Part shown: piece by piece, positions 15,287 to 63,922 of the stretch
How positions within the stretch are numbered: the first letter of the stretch is position 1
Layout: each line of letters opens with the position of its first letter
Origin: a virus
Virus record (IMG/VR): IMGVR_UViG_3300035695_000001
Coordinates: 50,139-114,138 of that record
Strand: one strand, 5' to 3'
DNA: 64,000 nt
The notes under the pieces: model-generated
Told to the model about the DNA's origin: nothing
Database searches by the model: none
Seen by the model: the letters and a program-made list of their open reading frames with translations, nothing else
Program-made: the position numbers and the translations under genes

Positions 15287-17527
15287 TCAGCTCGGGTCGC
15301 TGGTCTCGTTGATCAGCGTCTGCTGCCAGTTGTTGTGGCGCGCGACCCTGAGCGCGACGCCGAGGCTCCACCCGCCCTGCTGAAGAATCGTGGTGTCGGT
15401 GGCCGCCTTCATGTCCTTCAGGTAGGTCGGGTCGAGCAGTGGCTTCCCGTTCTGGTACTGACCGCACATCTGCGTGATGAGCAGGTTCGCGGCCGAGTCC
15501 ACCATGAACGGGTAGACCTGCCCAGGGATGGGCTTCACGCCAGAGGCGGGGTTCGCCTGGATGTTGCCCTTGTTGAGGCCACGCGCCTTGCAGATGGCCG
15601 CGAAGGCAGCCCACCACTCGATCATCACCGAGCCGATGTGGCCCTCCCTCGCCCGGTAGTCCTCCGTGGTCGTAGGGCTCCCCGGGGGCAGCCAGGAGTA
15701 GCTGGCGATGTCCCGGCGGATGAAGGCCGCGCCGGACCCGTCGTAGGTCACGTCACAGCACCCCCCGTTGAGCAGGGTGACCTCGTCGGTCTGGGACCAG
15801 ACGTTGGACAGGAGGTACGGCGTCGGGAAGGGGCAGACAGTGCCGAGGTTGGAGTCCGTGGTGTAGCCGGTCAGGTTCACCGCGGCGTAGACACTCTGCT
15901 CCTTGCTCAGGATCCCGGTGTACGCCGCGGCGCGCATGCTCGGGGGCCAGTCATTGGCGGTGGCCGGGATGACCTTGAAGAAGGTGCTGTTGACCACGCT
16001 GGCCTGGGCGACCGATGCGGACTGCGTCGAGGTGCCGTCGACCCCGCAGATCCCGAACTGGCTCTTGCCGACGGTGGGGGTGAGGCTCTGCGAGATGTAG
16101 GCGCTGTACTGGCCGACACCACCGTCGCTCGCGTTGCCACCGCTCGTCGCCGTGCAGGCAATGGCGTGGTAGGTGAACTCCCTCGCCGAGACTGCGGTGA
16201 TCGCGTTCGCGCAGGAGTCCGCACCCGCCCCGTTGACGGTCGAACCGGCCGAGATCGTGGTGGCGTTGGTCGGGTTGTCGTAGCTGAGCCGGACCTGGTC
16301 GAGCCAGTAGTTGGAGCGCGCCCCCAGTTGGTAGGTAGTGAGGGTGATCGTCGAGGCGCCGCCCGACGCCGCCCCGTTGTGCTCGGAGGTGTCCCAGCCG
16401 GCCACCTTGGCGACGACCGACCCGGAGGTGAACTGGACCCCCTTGGCCGTCGCGCCTGCCGTGTTGGTCGCCCACGTCACGCTGTTGTTGGCGTTCGCGG
16501 TGCCCGTCGAGCCGGCCGTGCCGCCGGTGAAGGTGCTCGTCAGGAGGCCAGCCATCTGCGACGCCGTCACCTGAGCGACGTTGGGCACGTTCCCGGTGCC
16601 GTTCGTCAGCGCTCCGACCGAGAGGCCGAGCGACGTCAGCACGTCCGCGGAGCCGGCCACGACCGCGCCCACCGCGGCGCTCCCGAGCTGGTTGCTGGTG
16701 AGTTGCGTCTGCCCTCCGTTGTTGAGGGCCACGCCGCCCGTGAGCCCGCCAGGGAGGGCGCTGTTGATCTTGGCGTGGAAGGCCGCCTGCGTTGCCTCCG
16801 ACCCGGAGAACGTGACCACCGTCTGCGTCCCCATGAACGACAGGGTCAGCGTGTGGCTGGCGGTGACCGCTGCGTACGTCGCGCCTGAGCCGGTGACCGT
16901 CGCCGCCGCGGCCGAGATGGTGAGGGTCTGCGCGCCTGCCTCGTCCACCTTGCCGACCAGGGTGTCCCCGTTGACCAGGGCCACGGGGAAGGCGTTGGCG
17001 CTGCTGGTCTCGGAGCCGTTGGTGGCCGCGCTCCCGCTCATCGCCGAGAAGGGGAGGTCCGGGTCGGCGTTGATGGTGTCGACGAGGTTGGAGACCTGGG
17101 TGCTCGGCGAGTCGCCCGCTGCGACCGTGATGCCCATCCTGGACTTGCCGGGGACGTTGACGGCGCAGGAGTCGATGTAGAGGTCGCAGCCGACACTGGC
17201 GTTCGTCGCGAGGGTCCAGGTGCGCGTGCTCGCAGTCGCGCCGCCCGCCTGCGCCATCGCCACGATCGTCACGAGGACGTTGGGGTCGATGATGCGCAGC
17301 GCGCGGTGCATCCACGCGGCCTCGGACCTGGAGCCGTAGCGGGTGTTGCAGTCGGCCTGGGACTTGACCGGCGAGCCCAGCGTCTCGACGCTCTCCGTCC
17401 CGGCGGCGAGCATGTTGGCGATGATGACGACGTTGCGGGAGGTCCCGTTCGCCGTGCTCCCGCCCTGCGCGGGCTTGAAGTCACGTTCGGAACTTGGAAT
17501 GGGCCACGAGGCCGGGGGGAAGCTCAT
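15287..17527 (-). CDS. Contractile tail sheath protein with inserted domain
   Basis: Start re-called at MSFPPASWP. RNVVIIANMLAAG...TRYGSRSEAAWM, and C-terminal EVTLLNGGCCDV...FIRRDIASY, match the Mu gpL-like sheath pattern. Confidence 0.9.
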   Translation of the reverse strand: MSFPPASWPIPSSERDFKPAQGGSTANGTSRNVVIIANMLAAGTESVETLGSPVKSQADCNTRYGSRSEAAWMHRALRIIDPNVLVTIVAMAQAGGATASTRTWTLATNASVGCDLYIDSCAVNVPGKSRMGITVAAGDSPSTQVSNLVDTINADPDLPFSAMSGSAATNGSETSSANAFPVALVNGDTLVGKVDEAGAQTLTISAAAATVTGSGATYAAVTASHTLTLSFMGTQTVVTFSGSEATQAAFHAKINSALPGGLTGGVALNNGGQTQLTSNQLGSAAVGAVVAGSADVLTSLGLSVGALTNGTGNVPNVAQVTASQMAGLLTSTFTGGTAGSTGTANANNSVTWATNTAGATAKGVQFTSGSVVAKVAGWDTSEHNGAASGGASTITLTTYQLGARSNYWLDQVRLSYDNPTNATTISAGSTVNGAGADSCANAITAVSAREFTYHAIACTATSGGNASDGGVGQYSAYISQSLTPTVGKSQFGICGVDGTSTQSASVAQASVVNSTFFKVIPATANDWPPSMRAAAYTGILSKEQSVYAAVNLTGYTTDSNLGTVCPFPTPYLLSNVWSQTDEVTLLNGGCCDVTYDGSGAAFIRRDIASYSWLPPGSPTTTEDYRAREGHIGSVMIEWWAAFAAICKARGLNKGNIQANPASGVKPIPGQVYPFMVDSAANLLITQMCGQYQNGKPLLDPTYLKDMKAATDTTILQQGGWSLGVALRVARHNNWQQTLINETSDPS

Positions 17528-17528
17528 C

Positions 17529-18170
17529 TCAGCTCTCCTCGGCAGCGTGCGCCGCCGGCTGTGGGTTGGTCGCCCGAGACTTGACCCACTTCGTGAGCCC
17601 GTGGACGAGGCTGCTGTGCGGGTCGACCCCGGCGGGCGCCGACTTGTCGAAGAAGACGGGGTGGCCGTTCTCGTTCGGGTGCTCGATGACCAGTCCCTCC
17701 TCACGGAGGGTGGCCAGCGCTTCGCCGAGGGCCTGTCCGCTGAGCCCGAGGCCGGTCAGGGTGTGCGTGACCTGTGCGGGGACATTGGCGGCGCGCCAGG
17801 CGACGTACTGTGCCTCCGCTCTGGCAGCGTCCTGCGCCTGCTTCGCCTCCGCCTGCGCCTTGAATGCAGCCTCGGCGCTCTCCTGGTCCGGGGCGTCGAC
17901 CTCGGCGAGGATCGCCAGCGTCTTGCCCGCCTCCTTGCGGAGGTTGGCGTGGTCGGCGATGACCTGCTCACGCGGGATGAAGCCGGCCGCCTTGTGGGGG
18001 TGCGTCGGGGTCGAGTGCCGACCCATCACCGGCTCGGGGCGGGGAGGAGCAGCCTTGACGCCGACGGGTCGGACCCGCGGCGGGTTGGACGTGGCCAGGT
18101 GTGGGTCGAGCACGAGGTGGACGTGGCCCGAACCCTCCTGCGGGAGGGCGGTGACGAGCAGGAAGCGCAT
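17529..18170 (-). CDS. Hypothetical virion-operon protein
   Basis: Start re-called at MRFLLVTAL; precedes the sheath gene. Confidence 0.6.
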   Translation of the reverse strand: MRFLLVTALPQEGSGHVHLVLDPHLATSNPPRVRPVGVKAAPPRPEPVMGRHSTPTHPHKAAGFIPREQVIADHANLRKEAGKTLAILAEVDAPDQESAEAAFKAQAEAKQAQDAARAEAQYVAWRAANVPAQVTHTLTGLGLSGQALGEALATLREEGLVIEHPNENGHPVFFDKSAPAGVDPHSSLVHGLTKWVKSRATNPQPAAHAAEES

Positions 18171-28263: not shown

Positions 28264-30189
28264 TCAGGGTCCGGCTGGCGTGGGTGCGCCTGGGCGCGGC
28301 GGTGGAGTCTTGGCCGGTGGCGGCTGAGCCTTGCCAGCGGGCACGGCCGGCTTGCCTGGTTGGGCAGTGGGCCCCTTGCTCGGCGCGGCGGGAGCCTTGG
28401 CTGCCGCCTTCGCCTTGGCGGTCTGAGCCAGCGCCGCGGGGGACGGAGGAGGGGGGCGCCTGGGAGGGGTCGGACCCACGGGCCGCTGTGCCGCAGTTGG
28501 AGCGACCTTCGCCGCACCGGGGGACGGAAGCCCCTGCTGCTGGGCCAGCGCCGCAGCCTGAGCAGCGGCGTCTGCCTTCGCCTGCTCTGCGTCAGCGGCG
28601 GCCTGTTCCAGGTGGGCCTTCAGTTCCCCGATGATCGTGGTCATCGTCTGCTGCGAGACGCCTGGGAGCCACTTGCGGAACCACCACGACCAGTATTCGG
28701 CCTTGGCTGTCCCGCTGGGGAGATCCATCGGAGAGCCAGGACCGGCACCGAGGATCTGGACGGCCTCGCCGAGGAGCGCGGCACGGTCCTCGTCTGGGTC
28801 GAACTGGTCCAGACCGTGGACCGCCCACTTGACGTTCTCGCCGCGGGCGTCGGAGATGATCTCGTAGACCCTGCGCGCAGCGTCCCGAAGGATGGCGGCC
28901 AGGGCCTTGAGCACCACGCAGAAGTCGTTGTTGTCGGCTGACTTGCTCTCCCCAGACCGGCCCAGCGCGGTGGACGTGTTGGAGATCGACGCGGCCATCT
29001 TGCCGGTGACCCGGAAGATTTCGTCCGTCAGGTCTTGGAGTTGGGTGGCGACGATCTGGAACGGGGCGGTATCCGGCCCCTCGAAGGCGAGTTTGTCGCC
29101 CTGGGCCAGGACCACGAACCCCTTCGACTCGTACTGCTTCTTTGGGTCATCGCCGCGGGACTGCTGCTGGGCGACGTCGGCTGGGAGCGGGCCGTGGAAG
29201 GCCCCGGTCTGCGGGCCCAGATAGACCACCGGGATCGTGATCAGGCTGCGCTGCTGGGCGGCGAGGAGTTCGGACCGGCGCCGCCACAGTTCCAGGCAGA
29301 GGAGGCCGGCGAGGTTCCCCAGCCAGAGAGTGTCCGGCAGTTCGATCTCGACGATGGGGATCTCACGGAACGTCGTCGGGCCGGACTGCTCGGCGATCTC
29401 GACCTCGACTTCCGGCTGTGGCTTCTTCCCCTTGACGATGGGGACGTTGTACGTCGTCCAGGTGACCTGGCCGTTCTCGTCGAGGTTCCAAACCTTGTAG
29501 ACCTCGACTGGGTTGTCGACGGGGTCCTCTGGGGTGGCCCGGCGGGTCTCGATCTTCCTGGTGATGCACCAGGAGAAGCGACCGACCGTGAAGCGAGCGG
29601 TGCCACCACCGTCCAGCGGAACCGCTTGCCGGACCTGGTCGTGGTACTCCCACCAGAGCATCTCCTCCGGTGGCATCTCGTACACGTACGGCTGCCCGAG
29701 CCCAGCCGACTTGGAGTCCGCCCGGTTCTTCGGGGCCGGGCCAGTGTTGGCCGGGAAGTCTACCGCGATCAGCGCCCGCTTCTTGACCAGCGCGGTACGC
29801 AGCGTGTCCTGGAGCACGCCCACGAAACTGGTCCCGCGAAGGTCGGCGTCGTCGGAGAGCGCCTCGTACACCTCTGGCTCGGGGACTTCCCCTGGGGTGT
29901 TGGGGTCGTCAGCGTCTCCCGCCGGGGTGACGGAGACCGGCCCAGAGAACATCGCCGAGGCGTACTGGTTGACGATCTGGCCAAGGTAGCCGACGTAGCC
30001 CGCCAGATCCTTCCGCGCCTTGTAGCGTTCTGGACTCTCGCCTGGCGCTTTCTTCAGGTACTTGTCGACGTTCTCCTGGATCTGGATGCCGCCGCAGTAG
30101 AGGTCGTCCAGCGTCTCCCACCAGGCAGCATCGTAGCCGCGACAACCGTCGGACTTGCCGCGCTTGGCAGAGAGGAGGCCGTACTTCAC
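28264..30189 (-). CDS. Portal protein
   Basis: WWETLDDLYCGG...YLKKAPGESPERYKARKDLAGY, DDADLRGTSF, FREIPIV, SGESKSAD; Pro/Ala/Lys-rich tail. Confidence 0.9.
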   Translation of the reverse strand: MKYGLLSAKRGKSDGCRGYDAAWWETLDDLYCGGIQIQENVDKYLKKAPGESPERYKARKDLAGYVGYLGQIVNQYASAMFSGPVSVTPAGDADDPNTPGEVPEPEVYEALSDDADLRGTSFVGVLQDTLRTALVKKRALIAVDFPANTGPAPKNRADSKSAGLGQPYVYEMPPEEMLWWEYHDQVRQAVPLDGGGTARFTVGRFSWCITRKIETRRATPEDPVDNPVEVYKVWNLDENGQVTWTTYNVPIVKGKKPQPEVEVEIAEQSGPTTFREIPIVEIELPDTLWLGNLAGLLCLELWRRRSELLAAQQRSLITIPVVYLGPQTGAFHGPLPADVAQQQSRGDDPKKQYESKGFVVLAQGDKLAFEGPDTAPFQIVATQLQDLTDEIFRVTGKMAASISNTSTALGRSGESKSADNNDFCVVLKALAAILRDAARRVYEIISDARGENVKWAVHGLDQFDPDEDRAALLGEAVQILGAGPGSPMDLPSGTAKAEYWSWWFRKWLPGVSQQTMTTIIGELKAHLEQAAADAEQAKADAAAQAAALAQQQGLPSPGAAKVAPTAAQRPVGPTPPRRPPPPSPAALAQTAKAKAAAKAPAAPSKGPTAQPGKPAVPAGKAQPPPAKTPPPRPGAPTPAGP

Positions 30190-36699: not shown

Positions 36700-38655
36700 T
36701 CAGGCAGGGGGCATCGCGCCGGTGCTCCGGTAGACTGGCGCCGGCATCGCTCGGCTCAGCACCGCCCAGGCGATGGCAGCGGTGAGCACGAGGTCGTCGT
36801 TGCTCCCGTTCTTCGCCCTGGCCTTGCCCCAGGCGTCAACCACGAAGGTCCGGAACTCCTCCAGCACCTTGACGTCTGGGGTCCGCCAGTTCCCGACGCG
36901 GTGGTCCTGCTCCAAGCCTGAGAGCGCGGCCTCTCGGCTGGGGCCGGTGGTGACCCACCCCTTCTTCCCGTCGGCGTCGGCCCAGATGTTTGGCCAACCG
37001 ACCCAGTCGGCCCGCGCCCACTCGATCAGGCGCTTGGCGAAGGCTGGCGCGACCCTGGCGATCTCCCGCAGGTCTTGCGACGCTTCGACGTCGCACAGCC
37101 TGGCCTCTATGCAAGCACGGTCGCCGACCACGTCAGCGATCATCTTCGGCCTGGCCATCTCGTCGATGGTGGAGATCCCGGTGTTGTTTTTCTCGATGGC
37201 GATCCAGGCGTTGCCGTACCGGATGGCCAAGGCGACAGCGAGCCGGCCCAGTTCCTTCGGCTTCACTTGTCCATGCAGCGTGGCTACGTGCCTTGGGCGC
37301 GCCCCCCGGGTCCACACCTGCAAGGCGGCCGGGTCGCCACCCTCGCCGCCGCTGGTGTCACCCGCGACGAGGTAGCTCTCCTGCTTGTCGTAGTCCTCGA
37401 AGATCCGGAGCCCGTAGGAGGCGCCGGCCCTGCGAACCTGAATCACCTTCGGAGGCTTGGCCTTCTCCTTCGCGGTCGCCTCGCCGATGAGGTGCTCTGT
37501 GACCTCCTTGGCGAAGTAGCCGGTGCCCGACGCGATGAAGCATGTGATCGGGTCGGTGGGCATCTCCTTGTCGACGCGCATCTGCCCCTTGGCGCGGACC
37601 TGGGCCCGGTACCACTTGAGAAACTCCATCGCGATCGTCGTGATGGACTTGGTCCCGCGTTCGATGAGACTCAGCATCGTTTCCTCCTTGGAAAGGTGTT
37701 CATGGAGCAGGGCCCAGCACTGCTCCTCGCGGACGCGGCGCTCGTCGATGGGCTGCTGGTCGGGCGTGACCGTCTCGCCTTCGTCGAGCGGCAGGCGCCG
37801 GTTTGGCAACTCGAACCACGCGAAGAAGTGCGGCGTGAACTCGTCCCCCTCGGCGGACGTGGCCCGCTTCCACATGCGGTGGAAGTAGGCCCCACCACGC
37901 GGGTCGTCGTCGCTCGTGCTGACCCCGTTGGGAGTCGACTCGATCGTGACCTCGGTCCCAGGTGCCGGCGCGGTGACCGAGTTGAGCACGCTGTCCATGG
38001 TGGCCGCAGCGACCTCCCAGAAGGCGATCTCGGTGCAGTGCAGCCGGTGCGTGGTGCCACCGCGGCCCTTCTTGTCGGCGGTGTGCTCGCTGGCGCCGGC
38101 CTCCAGAACCTCCAGCACTCCGCCGCCAACCGTCGAGGAGAGCGCCCACCGCCCCTTGCCCCCGGCCTTGGCTTGGAGCGGGATGTCGAGCCCCTTGTCG
38201 ACCAGGCTCTTGAGCATGAGGTCGATCGTTCTGGCGAAGTCCTTCTGCATCCCGTGCTCGCTCTCCGTCTGCACGATGACGCGGACGTTGGCCCCTGGGT
38301 GCATGAGCCAATACCAAATGTCGCGGCCGATCTCGACGGTCGACATGCCCAGCTTTCTGGCCTTCAAAACTTGGTCCCTACCCGTGCGGGCAGCGTCGAA
38401 GTCTCGCTGGAGCTGCGTGAGCACGAAGGGGACCGGCCGGCCCGCCATCTCGCCTGGCTTCTCGCCTGCCTCGGCTGCTGGCACGCTCAGGTGCCCGCAG
38501 AACCCGACGAAGTCCCCAGCGTACTTCTCCCTCAGCGCGGCGAGGGTGGAGAGCGGCTTGCTGTCCCAGTTCTCCAGCAGGGACAGGGTCAGGTGGACGA
38601 GGTCGTCCAGACTCTTGGGGCCTCTGGGCTGAGGGCGGGCAGCAGCGCGGGGCAT
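36700..38655 (-). CDS. terL: Terminase large subunit
   Basis: VLKARKLGMST (Walker A), LHCTEIAFW (Walker B), IESTPNG (coupling motif); nuclease motifs GDTSGGEGGD, IEKNNTG, NDDLVLTAAIA. Confidence 0.95.
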   Translation of the reverse strand: MPRAAARPQPRGPKSLDDLVHLTLSLLENWDSKPLSTLAALREKYAGDFVGFCGHLSVPAAEAGEKPGEMAGRPVPFVLTQLQRDFDAARTGRDQVLKARKLGMSTVEIGRDIWYWLMHPGANVRVIVQTESEHGMQKDFARTIDLMLKSLVDKGLDIPLQAKAGGKGRWALSSTVGGGVLEVLEAGASEHTADKKGRGGTTHRLHCTEIAFWEVAAATMDSVLNSVTAPAPGTEVTIESTPNGVSTSDDDPRGGAYFHRMWKRATSAEGDEFTPHFFAWFELPNRRLPLDEGETVTPDQQPIDERRVREEQCWALLHEHLSKEETMLSLIERGTKSITTIAMEFLKWYRAQVRAKGQMRVDKEMPTDPITCFIASGTGYFAKEVTEHLIGEATAKEKAKPPKVIQVRRAGASYGLRIFEDYDKQESYLVAGDTSGGEGGDPAALQVWTRGARPRHVATLHGQVKPKELGRLAVALAIRYGNAWIAIEKNNTGISTIDEMARPKMIADVVGDRACIEARLCDVEASQDLREIARVAPAFAKRLIEWARADWVGWPNIWADADGKKGWVTTGPSREAALSGLEQDHRVGNWRTPDVKVLEEFRTFVVDAWGKARAKNGSNDDLVLTAAIAWAVLSRAMPAPVYRSTGAMPPA

Positions 38656-56058: not shown

Positions 56059-56751
56059 CTAGCCCCCGCCGCTCCCCTTGCTAGACAGCAGGGCGGCCAC
56101 CTTCTGCCTCGCTGCCTCCCGCTTCTCTGGCGGGACCTCTTCGATCAGCGCCCCCAGCACCGCGGCCAGCCCTGGCACCGCGTCCAGGCTCAGCGTCCCA
56201 TCCCCAGCCCCGCCCACCGGGGTCCTGGCGGTCTGCCCCCAGTATGCTGGGAAGCGCCGGGCCATAAGGCGCTCCATCAGCGCCGAGTTGCCGTTCTTGG
56301 CCATCTGAGCGAGCGCGATCGTTGAGGCTGACTCCAGCACCGCCTCCGCCGTCCCCAAGCACTTGACCAGCGCCTTGAACAGTGGGCGCCCGTCTGGGTC
56401 GTTGCCCTCCTTCAGCCAGGCGTTCACGGTCTGTGGCGGGTAGCCGTAGACCCGGAAGGCGGCGAGGGGCCGGACGAACTGGCGGGCCTGCGCGCAGATC
56501 ATCGGGACGTGCTCGACCTTGAGGGACAGGGGCTGGCCGCGACGGGTGGCCCTGGAGCCGGTGCCGCGGTAGCGGGCCATCTCAGCGTCGAACTCGGCCT
56601 GGAAGATGGCGAACTCCTTCGCGCAGTTCTTGTGGAACCAGTCCAGGTCGGAGAGGGCGGCATCTGGGTCGAGGTCGATGGCGTCCTTGTAGGCGCGACG
56701 CCCGGCCACTGTCGTTGGTTGCCCTGCTGTAGGGCCTGGTTTTCGTGCCAT
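56059..56751 (-). CDS. Putative terminase small subunit
   Basis: HTH (AAFRVYGYPPQTVNAWLKEG) followed by F...AEA...LMARRFPAYWG, a pattern typical of a widespread TerS-like family. Confidence 0.7.
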   Translation of the reverse strand: MARKPGPTAGQPTTVAGRRAYKDAIDLDPDAALSDLDWFHKNCAKEFAIFQAEFDAEMARYRGTGSRATRRGQPLSLKVEHVPMICAQARQFVRPLAAFRVYGYPPQTVNAWLKEGNDPDGRPLFKALVKCLGTAEAVLESASTIALAQMAKNGNSALMERLMARRFPAYWGQTARTPVGGAGDGTLSLDAVPGLAAVLGALIEEVPPEKREAARQKVAALLSSKGSGGG

Positions 56752-60076: not shown

Positions 60077-61156
60077 TCAGCCCTTGGCTGTGACCTGGTC
60101 AGCCTCGTCGAGCGCTGCCTTCATCTGATCCACGTACCCGCGGAGGACCACCTTGGCCTCGGGGGAGAGCATGCGCTTGTCGGCAGCCTTGATTGGGGCC
60201 ACCACTTCGAGTGCTACGCGGGTACTCGTGATGGCGATCTCCTCGGGGTCTCTGTTCCTGTCAGAGCCGCGGGTTGCGAGCCAGTCCAGGTTCGACTGGA
60301 GGAAGGCCGCCCCGTCCACGAACGTCTGGCCCATGGGCAGCGAGAAGGCGTCCTGCGACGCCAGCACGTCGTCCCCGTTGCGGAACACAAAAACGAGGTA
60401 GTAGTCGGACTCGTCCCGCTTGGCGAAGGCTTGCTTGAGGTGCGTCTGCCGCTCCTGCGCCTTCTCCATCGCGAGCGAGAGGTTCATGGCCTGGGCGCTC
60501 GCCTTCATGGCGTCGCCGGAGGCTCCGAACATCGTGTAGAAGTCCCCCTCGCTGAAGCCGGTGGCCTTGAGCTTCACCTTGGGGCGCTTGAGCAGTTCGC
60601 CGAGAAGCGCGAAGTTCCAGCCGCCCTGGGCCATCGCGTTGTTGAGAGCGATCCCAACCTCGACGTGCTTGTCCTCGTCCAGGTCCACGACCGAGACCTG
60701 GATCTGGTAGACGTGGCCGGTCTTGCTCTCCTTGTCGAGCACCTTGAGCCGCTGGTGCCCGCTCACCATCCCGAGGGGCTTGCCGTCGGGACCGAACCGC
60801 TTGTTGAAGACGACGCTGGGTTCCACCAACCCGTTGTCGGCGACCGAGCCGCGGAGGGCAGCGAGATTGTCAACCTCGATGTAACGAGGATTTTGTTCCC
60901 ACTCGGTGATGGCCCGGCGGTCCATCCAGACCACCTCGTAGCCTCCGTCGAGTTGGTGGCGTGGGACCTCCGCCGAGCCGATGGGGAGAGCGGCCAGCCT
61001 CTCCTTGTCGGTCTTCGGCTTGGACTCCTTGGGGGCCGCGCCGTCCGCCGGAGCCTTCTTCGCTCGCGGCTTCTTGGCCGGCTTCTCGGTCTGCGTCTGG
61101 TTCTGATCCTGCGAGGCTGCCGCCGCCGCGCCGGACTCGGGTGCAACGTCGTCCAT
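60077..61156 (-). CDS. ParB-N domain protein (phage type)
   Basis: WEQNPRYI...LRGSVADNGLVEP...VSGHQRLKVL...VDLDEDKH...IALNN...QGGW...TGF. Confidence 0.88.
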   Translation of the reverse strand: MDDVAPESGAAAAASQDQNQTQTEKPAKKPRAKKAPADGAAPKESKPKTDKERLAALPIGSAEVPRHQLDGGYEVVWMDRRAITEWEQNPRYIEVDNLAALRGSVADNGLVEPSVVFNKRFGPDGKPLGMVSGHQRLKVLDKESKTGHVYQIQVSVVDLDEDKHVEVGIALNNAMAQGGWNFALLGELLKRPKVKLKATGFSEGDFYTMFGASGDAMKASAQAMNLSLAMEKAQERQTHLKQAFAKRDESDYYLVFVFRNGDDVLASQDAFSLPMGQTFVDGAAFLQSNLDWLATRGSDRNRDPEEIAITSTRVALEVVAPIKAADKRMLSPEAKVVLRGYVDQMKAALDEADQVTAKG

Positions 61157-61165
61157 GCGTGAAGG

Positions 61166-61825
61166 CTACCCGTCAACGTCAGCACTGGCCAGATGCAGCC
61201 ATGCCTTCCCGTTCACGATCTGATGGCACCGCGCCTGACAGACGCCGAACGCCTCGGCGAGCACCCTGTACGTGTCGCCAGCGGCTCGTCGCCGTCGGAT
61301 CTCGATGACCTGCTCGTCGGTCAATTTGACGTTGGGCGACCCCTCGCCTTGGTTCACGTACCCCCTACAACGGCCACGCCGCATCATGTCCGCAGTGTTG
61401 TCCGCCGCCGTGCCGAGTTTCAGGTGGGCCGGATTGACGCACGGCGGGTTGTCGCAGTGATGCAGTACCCACAGGTCCACCGGGATCGAGCCAACGAACA
61501 GTTCCCACGAAACGCAGTGGGTACCGTTCGTCTCCCCGTCGATGTCGATCTTCCCGTACCCGACGTCCTTTGAACGCCCGCGAGTCCATTGCCAGCACGG
61601 ACCAAGTTCGGGGACGATGATTGGACCATCAAAGCAGATGCCGTCGAAGAAACGGTCGAGCCACGAGCCGACCGTGCCCTTGTATGAGGCGGCCCACGAA
61701 GCCTTCGCGCACTCGTCAGAGCAGCACCTGCGCCCCTTGGTCTCCAGCGTCCTTTGGAAGTCCTTGCCGCAGTTCTTGCACTTCCGTACGCTGAGCATGT
61801 TCGACCACCCTTCTGGTTGAGCCAC
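61166..61825 (-). CDS. HNH homing endonuclease with C-terminal HTH
   Basis: CWQW...GYG...H...SWEL...VLHHCDNPPCVNPAHLKLGTAADNTADM; KLTDEQVIEIR...FGV. Confidence 0.92.
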   Translation of the reverse strand: MAQPEGWSNMLSVRKCKNCGKDFQRTLETKGRRCCSDECAKASWAASYKGTVGSWLDRFFDGICFDGPIIVPELGPCWQWTRGRSKDVGYGKIDIDGETNGTHCVSWELFVGSIPVDLWVLHHCDNPPCVNPAHLKLGTAADNTADMMRRGRCRGYVNQGEGSPNVKLTDEQVIEIRRRRAAGDTYRVLAEAFGVCQARCHQIVNGKAWLHLASADVDG

Positions 61826-61867
61826 CTGCCCGGGGCGCGCTAACGCCCGCGGGTAGGCCCTACACTA

Positions 61868-62569
61868 TCACGGTGCAGCGCTTGGAAGGCTGTAGAACCG
61901 ACGCCGCCAGACCGTGGCCCAGATGAAAGGGAAGTCCTCGGCGAGCAGCGCGAAGTCAGCCGGGTGACGACGGTGCAGCCACTCCAGCGACGGCGCGGTG
62001 AGGTCGATCCCGGTCGCGCTGTGCCCGCTGGAGTCGGGGATGGGGATCCCGTTGGCGGCCAGGAACTGGATGACGTCCACCTTCAACCACGACGCGATCG
62101 GATGGTAAATCTCGGCATACTGGACCGCCTTGAGTGTCCGGCGACGCCAAAGCGAATCGGCAGCCTTGGCCCCGGTCAGGATGACCTGGATGCCGGTACT
62201 CTCGATGGACCAGTCGTAGACGTCCCGCACCGTCAGGTCAGGGATCGCTGCGATGGCTTCAGGCGAGAGCGGTGGCCGGTACAGGTTGGCCTTGAGCATG
62301 CGAGCGAGGATCCAATGCGGAAGTTGGACGATCTCCATCCCGTGCCGGCGGCGCCCATCGTCGAGCGCCTCCTCCACACACGCGAGGCCCTTCTTCAGGT
62401 ACATGAAGACCCCGACCACCTGGTCGAACTTGCGGTGCGCGAGTGCGCAGATCGTACGACTCTCCTTGCCTCCGCTGTAGAAGCACAGCGCCCGCTTGGA
62501 GCCAGTCCTGGCCACGGCATCTGCCGCGGCTCTGTCGAGGATTTCTGTGGTCTGTTCGAGCTTGCCCAA
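61868..62569 (-). CDS. PAPS-reductase-like (PP-loop) protein
   Basis: FYSGGKES PP-loop; TGAKAADSLWRR; YHPIASW...DV. TTG start shortly after TGCTAGACT. Confidence 0.88.
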   Translation of the reverse strand: MGKLEQTTEILDRAAADAVARTGSKRALCFYSGGKESRTICALAHRKFDQVVGVFMYLKKGLACVEEALDDGRRRHGMEIVQLPHWILARMLKANLYRPPLSPEAIAAIPDLTVRDVYDWSIESTGIQVILTGAKAADSLWRRRTLKAVQYAEIYHPIASWLKVDVIQFLAANGIPIPDSSGHSATGIDLTAPSLEWLHRRHPADFALLAEDFPFIWATVWRRRFYSLPSAAP

Positions 62570-62614
62570 TGTGGGCGGAGTCTAGCACCCAGGCGTTGCA
62601 CCTGGGGCGTGAGG

Positions 62615-62845
62615 TCAGCCGGCGCCGCCGTGGTTGGAGTTGTTCCCGGTGCCGGGCCCGACGTTGCCCTTGTTGCGGTTGTTCTGCCGCTTCTTGGCCC
62701 CGGGGGTCCCGGGCTTGGGGGCGCCCTTGATGCCCAGTGGGGTCTTCGGGGTCGCCGTCCCCTTCACCGGGATGGCCCCGGGAGCCCGGAACCCGCCGGG
62801 GTTCGCCTTGCCCTTGGGCATGATCACCGCTTTCTTCGCCGCCAT
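62615..62845 (-). CDS. Small Lys/Gly/Pro-rich basic peptide ending GGAG
   Basis: Strong AAGGAG RBS; GC3-rich codons; 76 aa with no acidic residues. Confidence 0.75.
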   Translation of the reverse strand: MAAKKAVIMPKGKANPGGFRAPGAIPVKGTATPKTPLGIKGAPKPGTPGAKKRQNNRNKGNVGPGTGNNSNHGGAG

Positions 62846-62965
62846 GGTCTTTCTCCTTAGAGATCCGCCGACACAGGGCCGGCTCTTGGATGAGAGCCAA
62901 GAGTACGGCCTCGTCGAGCGGGATGGTAGGGGTGTCGAGGGGGTGGGTGCTGGTTTCTGCGGTGT

Positions 62966-63922
62966 CTAGCAGGAGGGGCTACCGGCGGGAGCGGCGGATG
63001 GCTCCACGACGGGAGGGGCGTCGTGGACCTTGGCCCAGATCCTCCCGGCCATGATGGCGCCGACCAGTGAGCCGCTGACGCCGAATCGCGCCGCGACCGC
63101 CTGCTTCTCCTCCCCAGCGCGAACCAAGGCTCGGATCTCTCGCACCTTGTCGGGGTTCAGTTTTGCGCGCGCGTCTGGGCCGATGGTGCCAGGCACCTCC
63201 AGCCAAATCTTGCCGCGCAGGATGCCCGTAATGGTCGAGTTGTGAACACCGAACGCATCCGCTACAGCGCGCCGCTTCTCACCGGCCGCCACACGCGCCC
63301 GGATGTCGCGAACCTGGTCGGCCGTCAACTTGCCGATGCCCATACGCGCACGAGCACCCTTCAAGCGCTTGCCGCACTCCACAAGTTTCGCCCGGCCCGC
63401 TGGCGTCAGCGTAGCGGCGCTGCGCGCCTTGCTCATTGCAGCACGCGCCTCCGGGGTCGACTGTCGCGCCGTCGCTGAAGCACTCATCTTGGCCCGGGTC
63501 TCTGGTGAGTGCTTGCGCCCACGCTGCGACACCTTCGACCGCTCGGCGATCTTCGCTCGCGTCTCCGGCGACTGGACGTGCCCAGGGGTCCCGTCTCCGC
63601 CGTCTGTGGCGTTGGTGAGGCGGGCGCCGAGCGCGCGGTAGTGGGCGATCCACTTCTTCTCGGCGTCCTTCCAGAGGTCCATGTCCGTGCCCGTCTCCAA
63701 TACGATCGGGACTGGCATCAGACCTGCGGCAAGGAGCGAGCGGAGCCACCTGCTCTTCCACGAGTTGTAGTCTTGGCTCTTCTTGGATCGCGCGGCGCCG
63801 CAATGGGTACGCAGACGGTTCCACGCGGTCTTCACCGTCCAGCCGACGTAGCGAACGTCGCCGGCATCGGCGAGCGGCACTGGGTCCAACAGTGCGTAGA
63901 TCGTCCAGGTCTTCGCTTCCAC
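62966..63922 (-). CDS. GIY-YIG homing endonuclease with NUMOD3 repeats and two C-terminal HTHs
   Basis: TIYALLDP...RYVGWT...RL..H...EKKWI...LTN; GRKHSPETRAKMS. Confidence 0.9.
   Translation of the reverse strand: MEAKTWTIYALLDPVPLADAGDVRYVGWTVKTAWNRLRTHCGAARSKKSQDYNSWKSRWLRSLLAAGLMPVPIVLETGTDMDLWKDAEKKWIAHYRALGARLTNATDGGDGTPGHVQSPETRAKIAERSKVSQRGRKHSPETRAKMSASATARQSTPEARAAMSKARSAATLTPAGRAKLVECGKRLKGARARMGIGKLTADQVRDIRARVAAGEKRRAVADAFGVHNSTITGILRGKIWLEVPGTIGPDARAKLNPDKVREIRALVRAGEEKQAVAARFGVSGSLVGAIMAGRIWAKVHDAPPVVEPSAAPAGSPSC

Follow-up and report, generated by a model that had tools for sequence, protein, structure and literature searches.

A 64,000-nucleotide (nt) stretch of phage DNA, referred to here as the window, carries a conserved three-part phage module that consists of at least one small, highly basic, disordered protein with a glycine tail, a PP-loop ATP pyrophosphatase and a protein of the ParB/Srx fold. 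The window spans bases 50139-114138 of the IMG/VR virus record IMGVR_UViG_3300035695_000001, which is 162,811 bp long with direct terminal repeats and a GC content of about 68%. Because the trio of peptide, PP-loop and ParB genes recurs in dozens of unrelated loci, the arrangement lies far beyond chance. In transcription order on the minus strand, the window encodes a GIY-YIG/NUMOD3 endonuclease, a 76-amino-acid (aa) open reading frame (ORF), a 233-aa PP-loop protein, an HNH_3 endonuclease and a 359-aa ParB-like protein (Table 1). The last four of these had been listed in this order, within 60077-62845, by an initial annotation made from the sequence alone, and all four are there.

The module was delineated by a neighbourhood survey in which homologs of the PP-loop protein were followed to their loci in viral, prokaryote genome and metagenome contigs and in assemblies, the prokaryote genome-assembly contigs being probably prophages. 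Removal of near-identical copies left 87 loci, whose GC content spans 31-72%. In 76 of them a ParB homolog is encoded immediately downstream of the PP-loop gene; most of the others are cut contigs. The conserved neighbours are limited to ParB, TerS, TerL and ASCH genes. Genes for TerS, TerL and portal come right after the cassette in most relatives, the arrangement known as the ParB-terminase locus. Just upstream of the enzyme gene lies a small, very basic ORF with a Gly-rich tail, such as ..RRKSAGGTGG, ..PTGGGGGGG, ..GNVGSMGG, ..NSRGGLGG or ..VRAGLGMSSG. Under a strict rule (30-130 aa, net charge of +5 or more, 3 or more Gly among the final 8 residues and an end located between -350 and +90 nt relative to the start of the PP-loop gene), such an ORF is present in 41 of the 80 loci that could be evaluated; in 906 kb of sequence elsewhere in these loci the rule is satisfied 28 times, or 0.014 per equivalent stretch. 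When shorter variants are included, a Gly-tailed basic ORF stands upstream in 53 of 77 evaluable loci, across all major clades of the enzyme tree.

The enrichment holds when glycine plays no part in the choice of the ORF. In a glycine-blind test, the most basic small upstream ORF was picked in 57 representative loci (less than 70% identity). Glycine is the last residue in 22 of 48 picks (46%), against a rate of 7.3% among the 1598 basic ORFs used as controls (binomial p 4e-13). The true share is higher, since several GC-rich loci yielded an out-of-frame Arg-rich ORF adjacent to the real one. The initial annotation had raised the question of whether homologs consistently have a small basic ORF ending in Gly upstream, and the answer from the strict, broad and glycine-blind counts is clearly positive.

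What is preserved from locus to locus is the end of the protein. In the closest two relatives (enzymes 57-58% identical), the peptide ends in ..HHASGGAGGGGA and ..NSHTGGGG. The bodies of the Gly-tailed proteins span 20 to about 170 aa, and the 20-24-aa peptides consist of a lysine patch followed by poly-Gly. Several different Gly-tailed proteins occur on both sides of the PP-loop gene in loci L020, L037, L038 and L088, and Bacteroidales-type loci have up to four of them around the enzyme gene (..GLALSVG, ..YMGMANG, ..QYGLING, ..SMGLNGG). Since multiple Gly-tailed proteins coexist with differing bodies, the tail is the conserved element. The type of tail tracks the enzyme clade, with G[LM]xxxG in the Bacteroidota clade and GGxGG or poly-G elsewhere; this fits recognition by the enzyme, and shared ancestry would yield the same pattern. 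Three or four different Gly-tailed proteins of 70-126 aa, some of them with bodies that appear to be folded, flank the PP-loop gene in L037 (2434-2949, 3649-4430), L038 and L088 (2543-2988, 3707-4272), which come from Bacteroidales metagenome-assembled genomes, probably as prophages, and from a related metagenome contig; their tails read ..GLALSVG, ..YMGLANG, ..QYGLING and ..SMGLNGG.

The module also behaves as a unit. In a comparison of the window phage with its 155-kb relative L002, the genes for the PP-loop and ParB proteins match, as do the position of the peptide and, about 5 kb further upstream, the N-terminal 66 aa of a single ORF; nothing else does. As the matches are nearly confined to the trio, it moves as a cassette.

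Table 1. The module and its flanking genes in the window (window coordinates).
Feature	Position	Strand	Basis and remarks
Basic disordered peptide, 76 aa, Gly-rich C-terminus ..NSNHGGAG	62615..62845	-	ORF, GC content at third codon positions (GC3), ESM Atlas, survey of upstream ORFs; putative substrate, co-substrate or partner for the enzyme
Shine-Dalgarno AAGGAG, 7 nt 5' of the peptide ATG	62853..62858	-	Read from the sequence
PP-loop ATP pyrophosphatase, PAPS-reductase-like family, 233 aa, TTG start; SGGKES at residues 32-37, D138, R142; without catalytic cysteine or Fe-S ligands	61868..62569	-	
Free-standing HNH_3 homing endonuclease between the PP-loop and ParB genes; intruder	61166..61825	-	Pfam HNH_3, E 1.5e-9
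ParB/Srx-fold protein, 359 aa; basic disordered N-terminus, NPR and GHQR motifs, conserved C-terminal alpha/beta module	60077..61156	-	PHROG, Foldseek, alignment; downstream of the PP-loop gene in 76/87 loci
GIY-YIG/NUMOD3/HTH homing endonuclease directly upstream of the peptide gene; flanking intruder	62966..63922	-	Family profile matches; no counterpart by the L002 peptide

Every test applied supports the 76-aa ORF as a real gene. Its GC3 is 0.95, compared with 0.55-0.84 in the overlapping alternative frames, and the initial annotation was right to credit it with a strong ribosome binding site and an HGGAG ending, as the full C-terminus reads ..NNSNHGGAG. The product is very basic and its ESM Atlas model has a predicted local distance difference test score (pLDDT) of 0.25, as for a disordered protein. 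Searches with the peptide against Pfam, PHROGs, NCBIfam and PADLOC gave zero matches, tblastn with the peptide as query recovered only itself, and its ESM Atlas neighbours, scoring at most 0.79, are a lead only.

The second component has the PP-loop ATP-pyrophosphatase fold in an AF2 model with a pLDDT of 91. It belongs to the PP-loop superfamily by its SGGxDS-type motif, in which S32, G34, K35 and S37 are each present in 97-98% of the 87 homologs; D138 and R142 are near-invariant, and the window enzyme retains these as well as the core PP-loop residues. Sequence matches are modest, with an E-value of 1.5e-3 and 19 bits against Pfam PAPS_reduct (under the 22.5 cut-off), a best PHROG of phrog_424 at 4.6e-8 and a weak match of 8.5e-4 to the IbrA-type phrog_2302. 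By structure, VIA-align places the model among a tied set at Z 13-15 that contains LarE, the PAPS domain of FAD synthase, APS/PAPS reductases, CysD, NcsA, NAD synthetase and TilS, and the top Foldseek matches are TtuA, including TtuA in complex with TtuB, its carrier with a Gly-Gly tail. Cap9 (9nto_B), a PP-loop enzyme that modifies a protein terminus, aligns at Z 12.2. Among the 87 homologs no cysteine column exceeds 60%, and the ECGLH motif characteristic of CysH-type PAPS/APS reductases is absent from the window enzyme. In the absence of a conserved cysteine, the catalytic Cys of CysH and the Fe-S ligands of DndC and TtuA are excluded. From these sequence features, sulfate reduction by the enzyme would be very unlikely and sulfur insertion unlikely, and the initial annotation's doubt about sulfate assimilation, which rested on the missing ECGLH, is reinforced by the alignment. 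Median pI values are 9.1 in the enzyme family and 5.2 in the ParB family, and the peptides lie at about 12. Longer, fused forms of the PP-loop protein were sought and none came up, which is weak evidence.

The third component matches PHROG ParB families at 1e-12 to 1e-14, and Foldseek returns ParB, Noc, KorB and PadC at the top (E 3e-5, prob 1.0). Counterparts of ParB boxes I and II, namely NPR and GHQR, are near-invariant in 30 ParB homologs, in keeping with the ParB/Srx fold. Pfam ParBc has no match in the window protein although distant homologs match it, and a PDB sequence search returned chance matches only. Of the hallmarks of a chromosome- or plasmid-partition ParB (an HTH DNA-binding domain, a ParA partner and parS sites), no ParA-like gene is present among the conserved neighbours and no HTH family came up in the Pfam scan; the Foldseek matches span ParB, Noc and KorB chains. 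Distant homologs are ParB-methyltransferase fusions. ParB-terminase loci were reportedly first described by Iyer et al. in NAR in 2013. Such loci have been predicted to carry out modification of phage DNA at packaging, and the PAPS-reductase/ParB-like pairs within them to mark DNA (PMC4738411). In another phage a ParB-like protein activates a thymine dioxygenase specifically on dsDNA (PMC13229309). By analogy with these systems, the ParB-like protein most likely brings the PP-loop enzyme to DNA or activates it there. The ParB-fused N6/N4 methyltransferases and the ParB-dependent thymine dioxygenase 5mYOX176 resemble the module in coupling a phage ParB-like protein without a classic segregation role to an enzyme that acts on dsDNA (PMC13229309), whereas here the partner is a PP-loop ATPase and a peptide is added as a third component.

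What the enzyme does with the peptide can be approached from the chemistry of its relatives. PP-loop enzymes adenylate carboxylates or carbonyls, as do NAD synthetase, QueC, Dph6, asparagine synthetase and TilS, and both E1 enzymes and TtuA accept a flexible Gly tail into the active site. We consider the chances about even that the peptide tail is acted on by the PP-loop enzyme. The enzyme would then spend ATP to activate the C-terminal Gly carboxylate, most simply by adenylation, with the glycine tail providing a flexible extension into the active site. Once activated, the tail could be joined to a nucleophile, and because of the ParB link this would most likely be on phage DNA. Ahead of packaging or in its course, the acidic ParB-like partner may bring the basic enzyme to double-stranded DNA or switch it on there, and the PP-loop/ParB pair might fill the place held in other phages by ParB-fused methyltransferases. 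It is rather doubtful that the acceptor is DNA or protein and that a new conjugation chemistry results. The most specific form of the proposal is likewise a tentative one, to which we would give low odds: an E1-independent ligase that adenylates the C-terminal Gly of ribosomally made basic peptides, leading either to peptidyl-DNA hypermodification under ParB control before packaging or to protein conjugation, a phage version of ubiquitin-like tagging. Where an ASCH gene accompanies the cassette, its product could be the reader or eraser of the peptide mark. A complex prediction from the PP-loop alignment and an alignment of 36-aa tails with ATP and Mg gave an ipSAE (interaction prediction score from aligned errors) of 0.01, which weighs neither way on binding.

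Enzymes that act on the end of a co-encoded partner are known. Cap9 and QatC are QueC-like and conjugate deazaguanine to a protein terminus; the likeness lies in a PP-loop ATP pyrophosphatase that acts, or here is proposed to act, on the terminus of a partner encoded alongside. These systems differ in belonging to the QueC family and to host defence, in using the N-terminus and a small-molecule carboxylate and in having no ParB, whereas the present module is PAPS-reductase-like and borne by phages. Neither the E1-like enzyme nor the PafA/Dop ligase that stand beside the GG- or GGQ/E-tailed tags of ubiquitin-like and Pup tagging is found among the conserved neighbours, and the sole ATP-using enzyme of the cassette is the PP-loop protein. 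Activation and transfer of the tail, if they do occur, would represent an enzymology new to PP-loop proteins and possibly a new class of DNA or protein modification, with bearing on anti-restriction, phage engineering and bioconjugation tools. The literature searched describes the PAPS-reductase/ParB pairing and the ParB-terminase locus and makes no mention of the Gly-tailed peptides.

Several observations weigh against a peptide-activating enzyme. About 30% of the evaluable loci have no Gly-tailed ORF beside the enzyme gene, nor do the distant homologs in the cultured phages Pasteurella Pm86 and Lactobacillus LR1, while Riemerella RAP44 has a basic ORF that ends in ..NGAI. The peptide of L002 has a terminal Ala, and Q, R, S or T is the last residue of a few others. 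The window enzyme itself deviates at three otherwise conserved positions, with E36 in place of D (91%), A42 in place of D (92%) and K60 in place of P (98%). Gene adjacency could reflect mere co-expression of a DNA-binding protein. Finally, in the window phage the large terminase gene (36700-38655) is about 22 kb from the module, so that the association with terminases suggested by the initial annotation stands only in part: the pair is conserved and precedes the terminase genes in most relatives, and in the window it does not.

In the main rival account, the PP-loop/ParB pair alone modifies DNA (or RNA) bases in the manner of IbrA/IbrB or YbdN/YbdM and the peptide is a co-expressed accessory for DNA binding, protamine-like DNA condensation or packaging, its tail being a flexible spacer. 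We regard this as possible, if somewhat unlikely. The peptides are as basic and disordered as nucleic-acid binders tend to be, the enzyme has the basic pI of DNA- or tRNA-modifying PP-loop enzymes, about 30% of the loci and several cultured phages lack an adjacent Gly-tailed ORF, and the module stands ahead of TerS and TerL in most relatives. A spacer, however, leaves unexplained why Gly occupies the final position in 46% of unbiased picks and in 7% of controls, why otherwise unrelated bodies have only the tail in common, and why peptides of 20-24 aa should consist of barely more than a lysine patch and poly-Gly. The precedent itself is close. IbrA/IbrB (YbdN/YbdM) and other phage pairs of PAPS reductase and ParB-like protein likewise have a PP-loop protein obligately paired with a ParB/Srx-fold protein, are borne by phages or prophages and usually head a packaging operon, and the adjacent ParB-domain partner that typifies IbrA/IbrB is what the survey found directly downstream. 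The module departs from them in its small PP-loop protein, its best PHROG (424 rather than the IbrA-type 2302), the gene order of PP-loop then ParB and the Gly-tailed basic peptide. In IbrA the PAPS_reduct domain is followed by DUF3440; since the PP-loop protein has no Pfam DUF3440 match at E 0.01, the enzyme is not IbrA proper.

A sulfur relay, in which the Gly tail becomes a thiocarboxylate as in TtuB, ThiS or MoaD and the enzyme thiolates DNA or tRNA as do TtuA/TtuB or DndC, is most improbable. The TtuA matches of the enzyme, among them the complex with TtuB, speak for it, as does the precedent of DndC and DndB, which form a PAPS-reductase-like/ParB-like pair (PMC12839542). TtuA/TtuB, like Ncs6/Urm1, accomplishes tRNA 2-thiolation with a PP-loop enzyme and a small protein that inserts its flexible C-terminal Gly tail into the active site. 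However, TtuA requires an Fe-S cluster and zinc fingers, both of which are absent here, and TtuB is a folded beta-grasp protein served by a separate E1-like enzyme. The 87 homologs conserve neither a cysteine nor an Fe-S ligand, the cassette encodes neither an E1-like adenylase nor a rhodanese or cysteine desulfurase, and the peptides are predicted to be disordered rather than beta-grasp. The DndB/DndC system of phosphorothioation also combines a ParB-like protein with a PAPS-reductase-like PP-loop protein, and that pair acts on DNA, whereas the module lacks the cysteines and [4Fe-4S] cluster of DndC as well as DndA, DndD and DndE, and the PADLOC Dnd and Ssp models have no match in it. The sulfur-carrier variant floated in the initial annotation is therefore unlikely, given a module without Cys/Fe-S ligands, E1-like enzyme or desulfurase.

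Database labels would make the PP-loop gene a CysH-type PAPS reductase that serves host sulfate assimilation as an auxiliary metabolic gene. This reading has practically no chance of being correct and is effectively refuted by the missing catalytic cysteine: the weak PAPS_reduct match, the source annotations of the homologs and the likeness in fold to APS/PAPS reductases are met by a Pfam score under the cut-off, by the lack of ECGLH and of any conserved Cys, and by the constant partnership of the gene with ParB and Gly-tailed peptides in place of sulfur genes. This matters because phage PAPS reductase genes are routinely reported as auxiliary sulfur-metabolism genes. For a family devoid of the catalytic cysteine and found alongside a ParB-like protein and Gly-tailed peptides, the label is almost certainly wrong.

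Activation of the peptide tail by the PP-loop enzyme is now directly testable because the full cassette is carried by the cultured Bacteroides phage BS-TP2 and by the genome of Parabacteroides goldsteinii DSM 19448. In BS-TP2 it comprises an ASCH protein (gp52), a 53-aa peptide ending in ..GANGSNG (gp53), the PAPS reductase (gp54), ParB (gp55) and TerL (gp57); the Parabacteroides locus (L036) is probably a prophage. Contigs with the cassette are assigned to Acidobacteriota, Myxococcota, Bacteroidota and Bacillota, including human-gut Bacteroidales, and represent phages and probable prophages. Among the loci without an upstream peptide is L020, where a Gly-tailed protein (..STGNRGG) is encoded between the PP-loop and ParB genes.

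Although the HNH gene lies within the module and was listed with the other genes in the initial annotation, it is not a component. The gene product matches HNH_3 above the cut-off and the gene is bordered by spacers of 42 nt and 9 nt, while in L002 and L003, the closest relatives, the PP-loop and ParB genes abut or overlap with no HNH gene between them. Its absence from the same junction in these relatives marks it as a homing-endonuclease insertion. A functional part in the system can be rejected for the HNH protein on the same grounds, together with the finding that unrelated HNH genes have entered this junction in other lineages. The upstream GIY-YIG gene is likewise a selfish homing-endonuclease intruder, with no GIY-YIG counterpart next to the peptide gene in L002.

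HNH genes are found at the PP-loop/ParB junction in at least four separate lineages, represented by the window gene, L013 4515-5171 (also in L014), L059 925-1404 and L024 5078-5563, which gives the junction the appearance of a recurrent homing site. A 46-aa HTH-like module, 48% identical between the two, is common to the C-terminus of the window HNH protein (residues 167-212) and the GIY-YIG protein (residues 198-243). By virtue of this shared module, the two different flanking homing endonucleases carry a related DNA-binding cassette.

The structural genes of the window are those of a tailed phage, with a tail sheath at 15287-17704 and a portal at 28264-30189 in addition to the large terminase. 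Upstream of the module, just past the right end of the window, is a gene for an SNF2/ResIII-type helicase (G000:C1 114061-116103; L107 162-2204), and a D12-class (Dam-like) N6-adenine DNA methyltransferase is also encoded upstream (G000:C1 118571-119491; L107 4672-5592). With this helicase and methyltransferase upstream, the window module sits in a block of DNA-metabolism and modification genes and not beside the terminase. Downstream of the module, a 230-aa ORF (56059-56751) has a weak small-terminase match (phrog_4102, E 1.8e-3) and may be a TerS-like gene apart from the large terminase.

An RNA hairpin between the peptide and PP-loop genes, which could act as an attenuator of the kind that follows precursor genes of ribosomally synthesized and post-translationally modified peptides, is not significant (z -1.05), and a promoter and terminator scan stayed at background level. 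A DNA-level search of known phages returned short HNH matches only, and the best protein-level match in cultured phages is at most 30% identical.

A few further genes accompany the cassette in its relatives. One with an ASCH domain often precedes the peptide gene, for instance in L020 (259-726), L026 (3232-3681), L028 (2421-2891), L043 (2415-2861) and L111 (1346-1735); no ASCH gene was found in the phage of the window. Another conserved gene, whose product ends in ..GLR(L/V)IYPDG.. and belongs to no Pfam family, precedes the peptide gene in L005 (3-110), L016 (1766-3049) and L019 (2452-2859). Beside the cassette in L004 (2427-2888), L031 (606-998) and L066 (3195-3722) are DUF488 genes, which are rhodanese-phosphatase-like.

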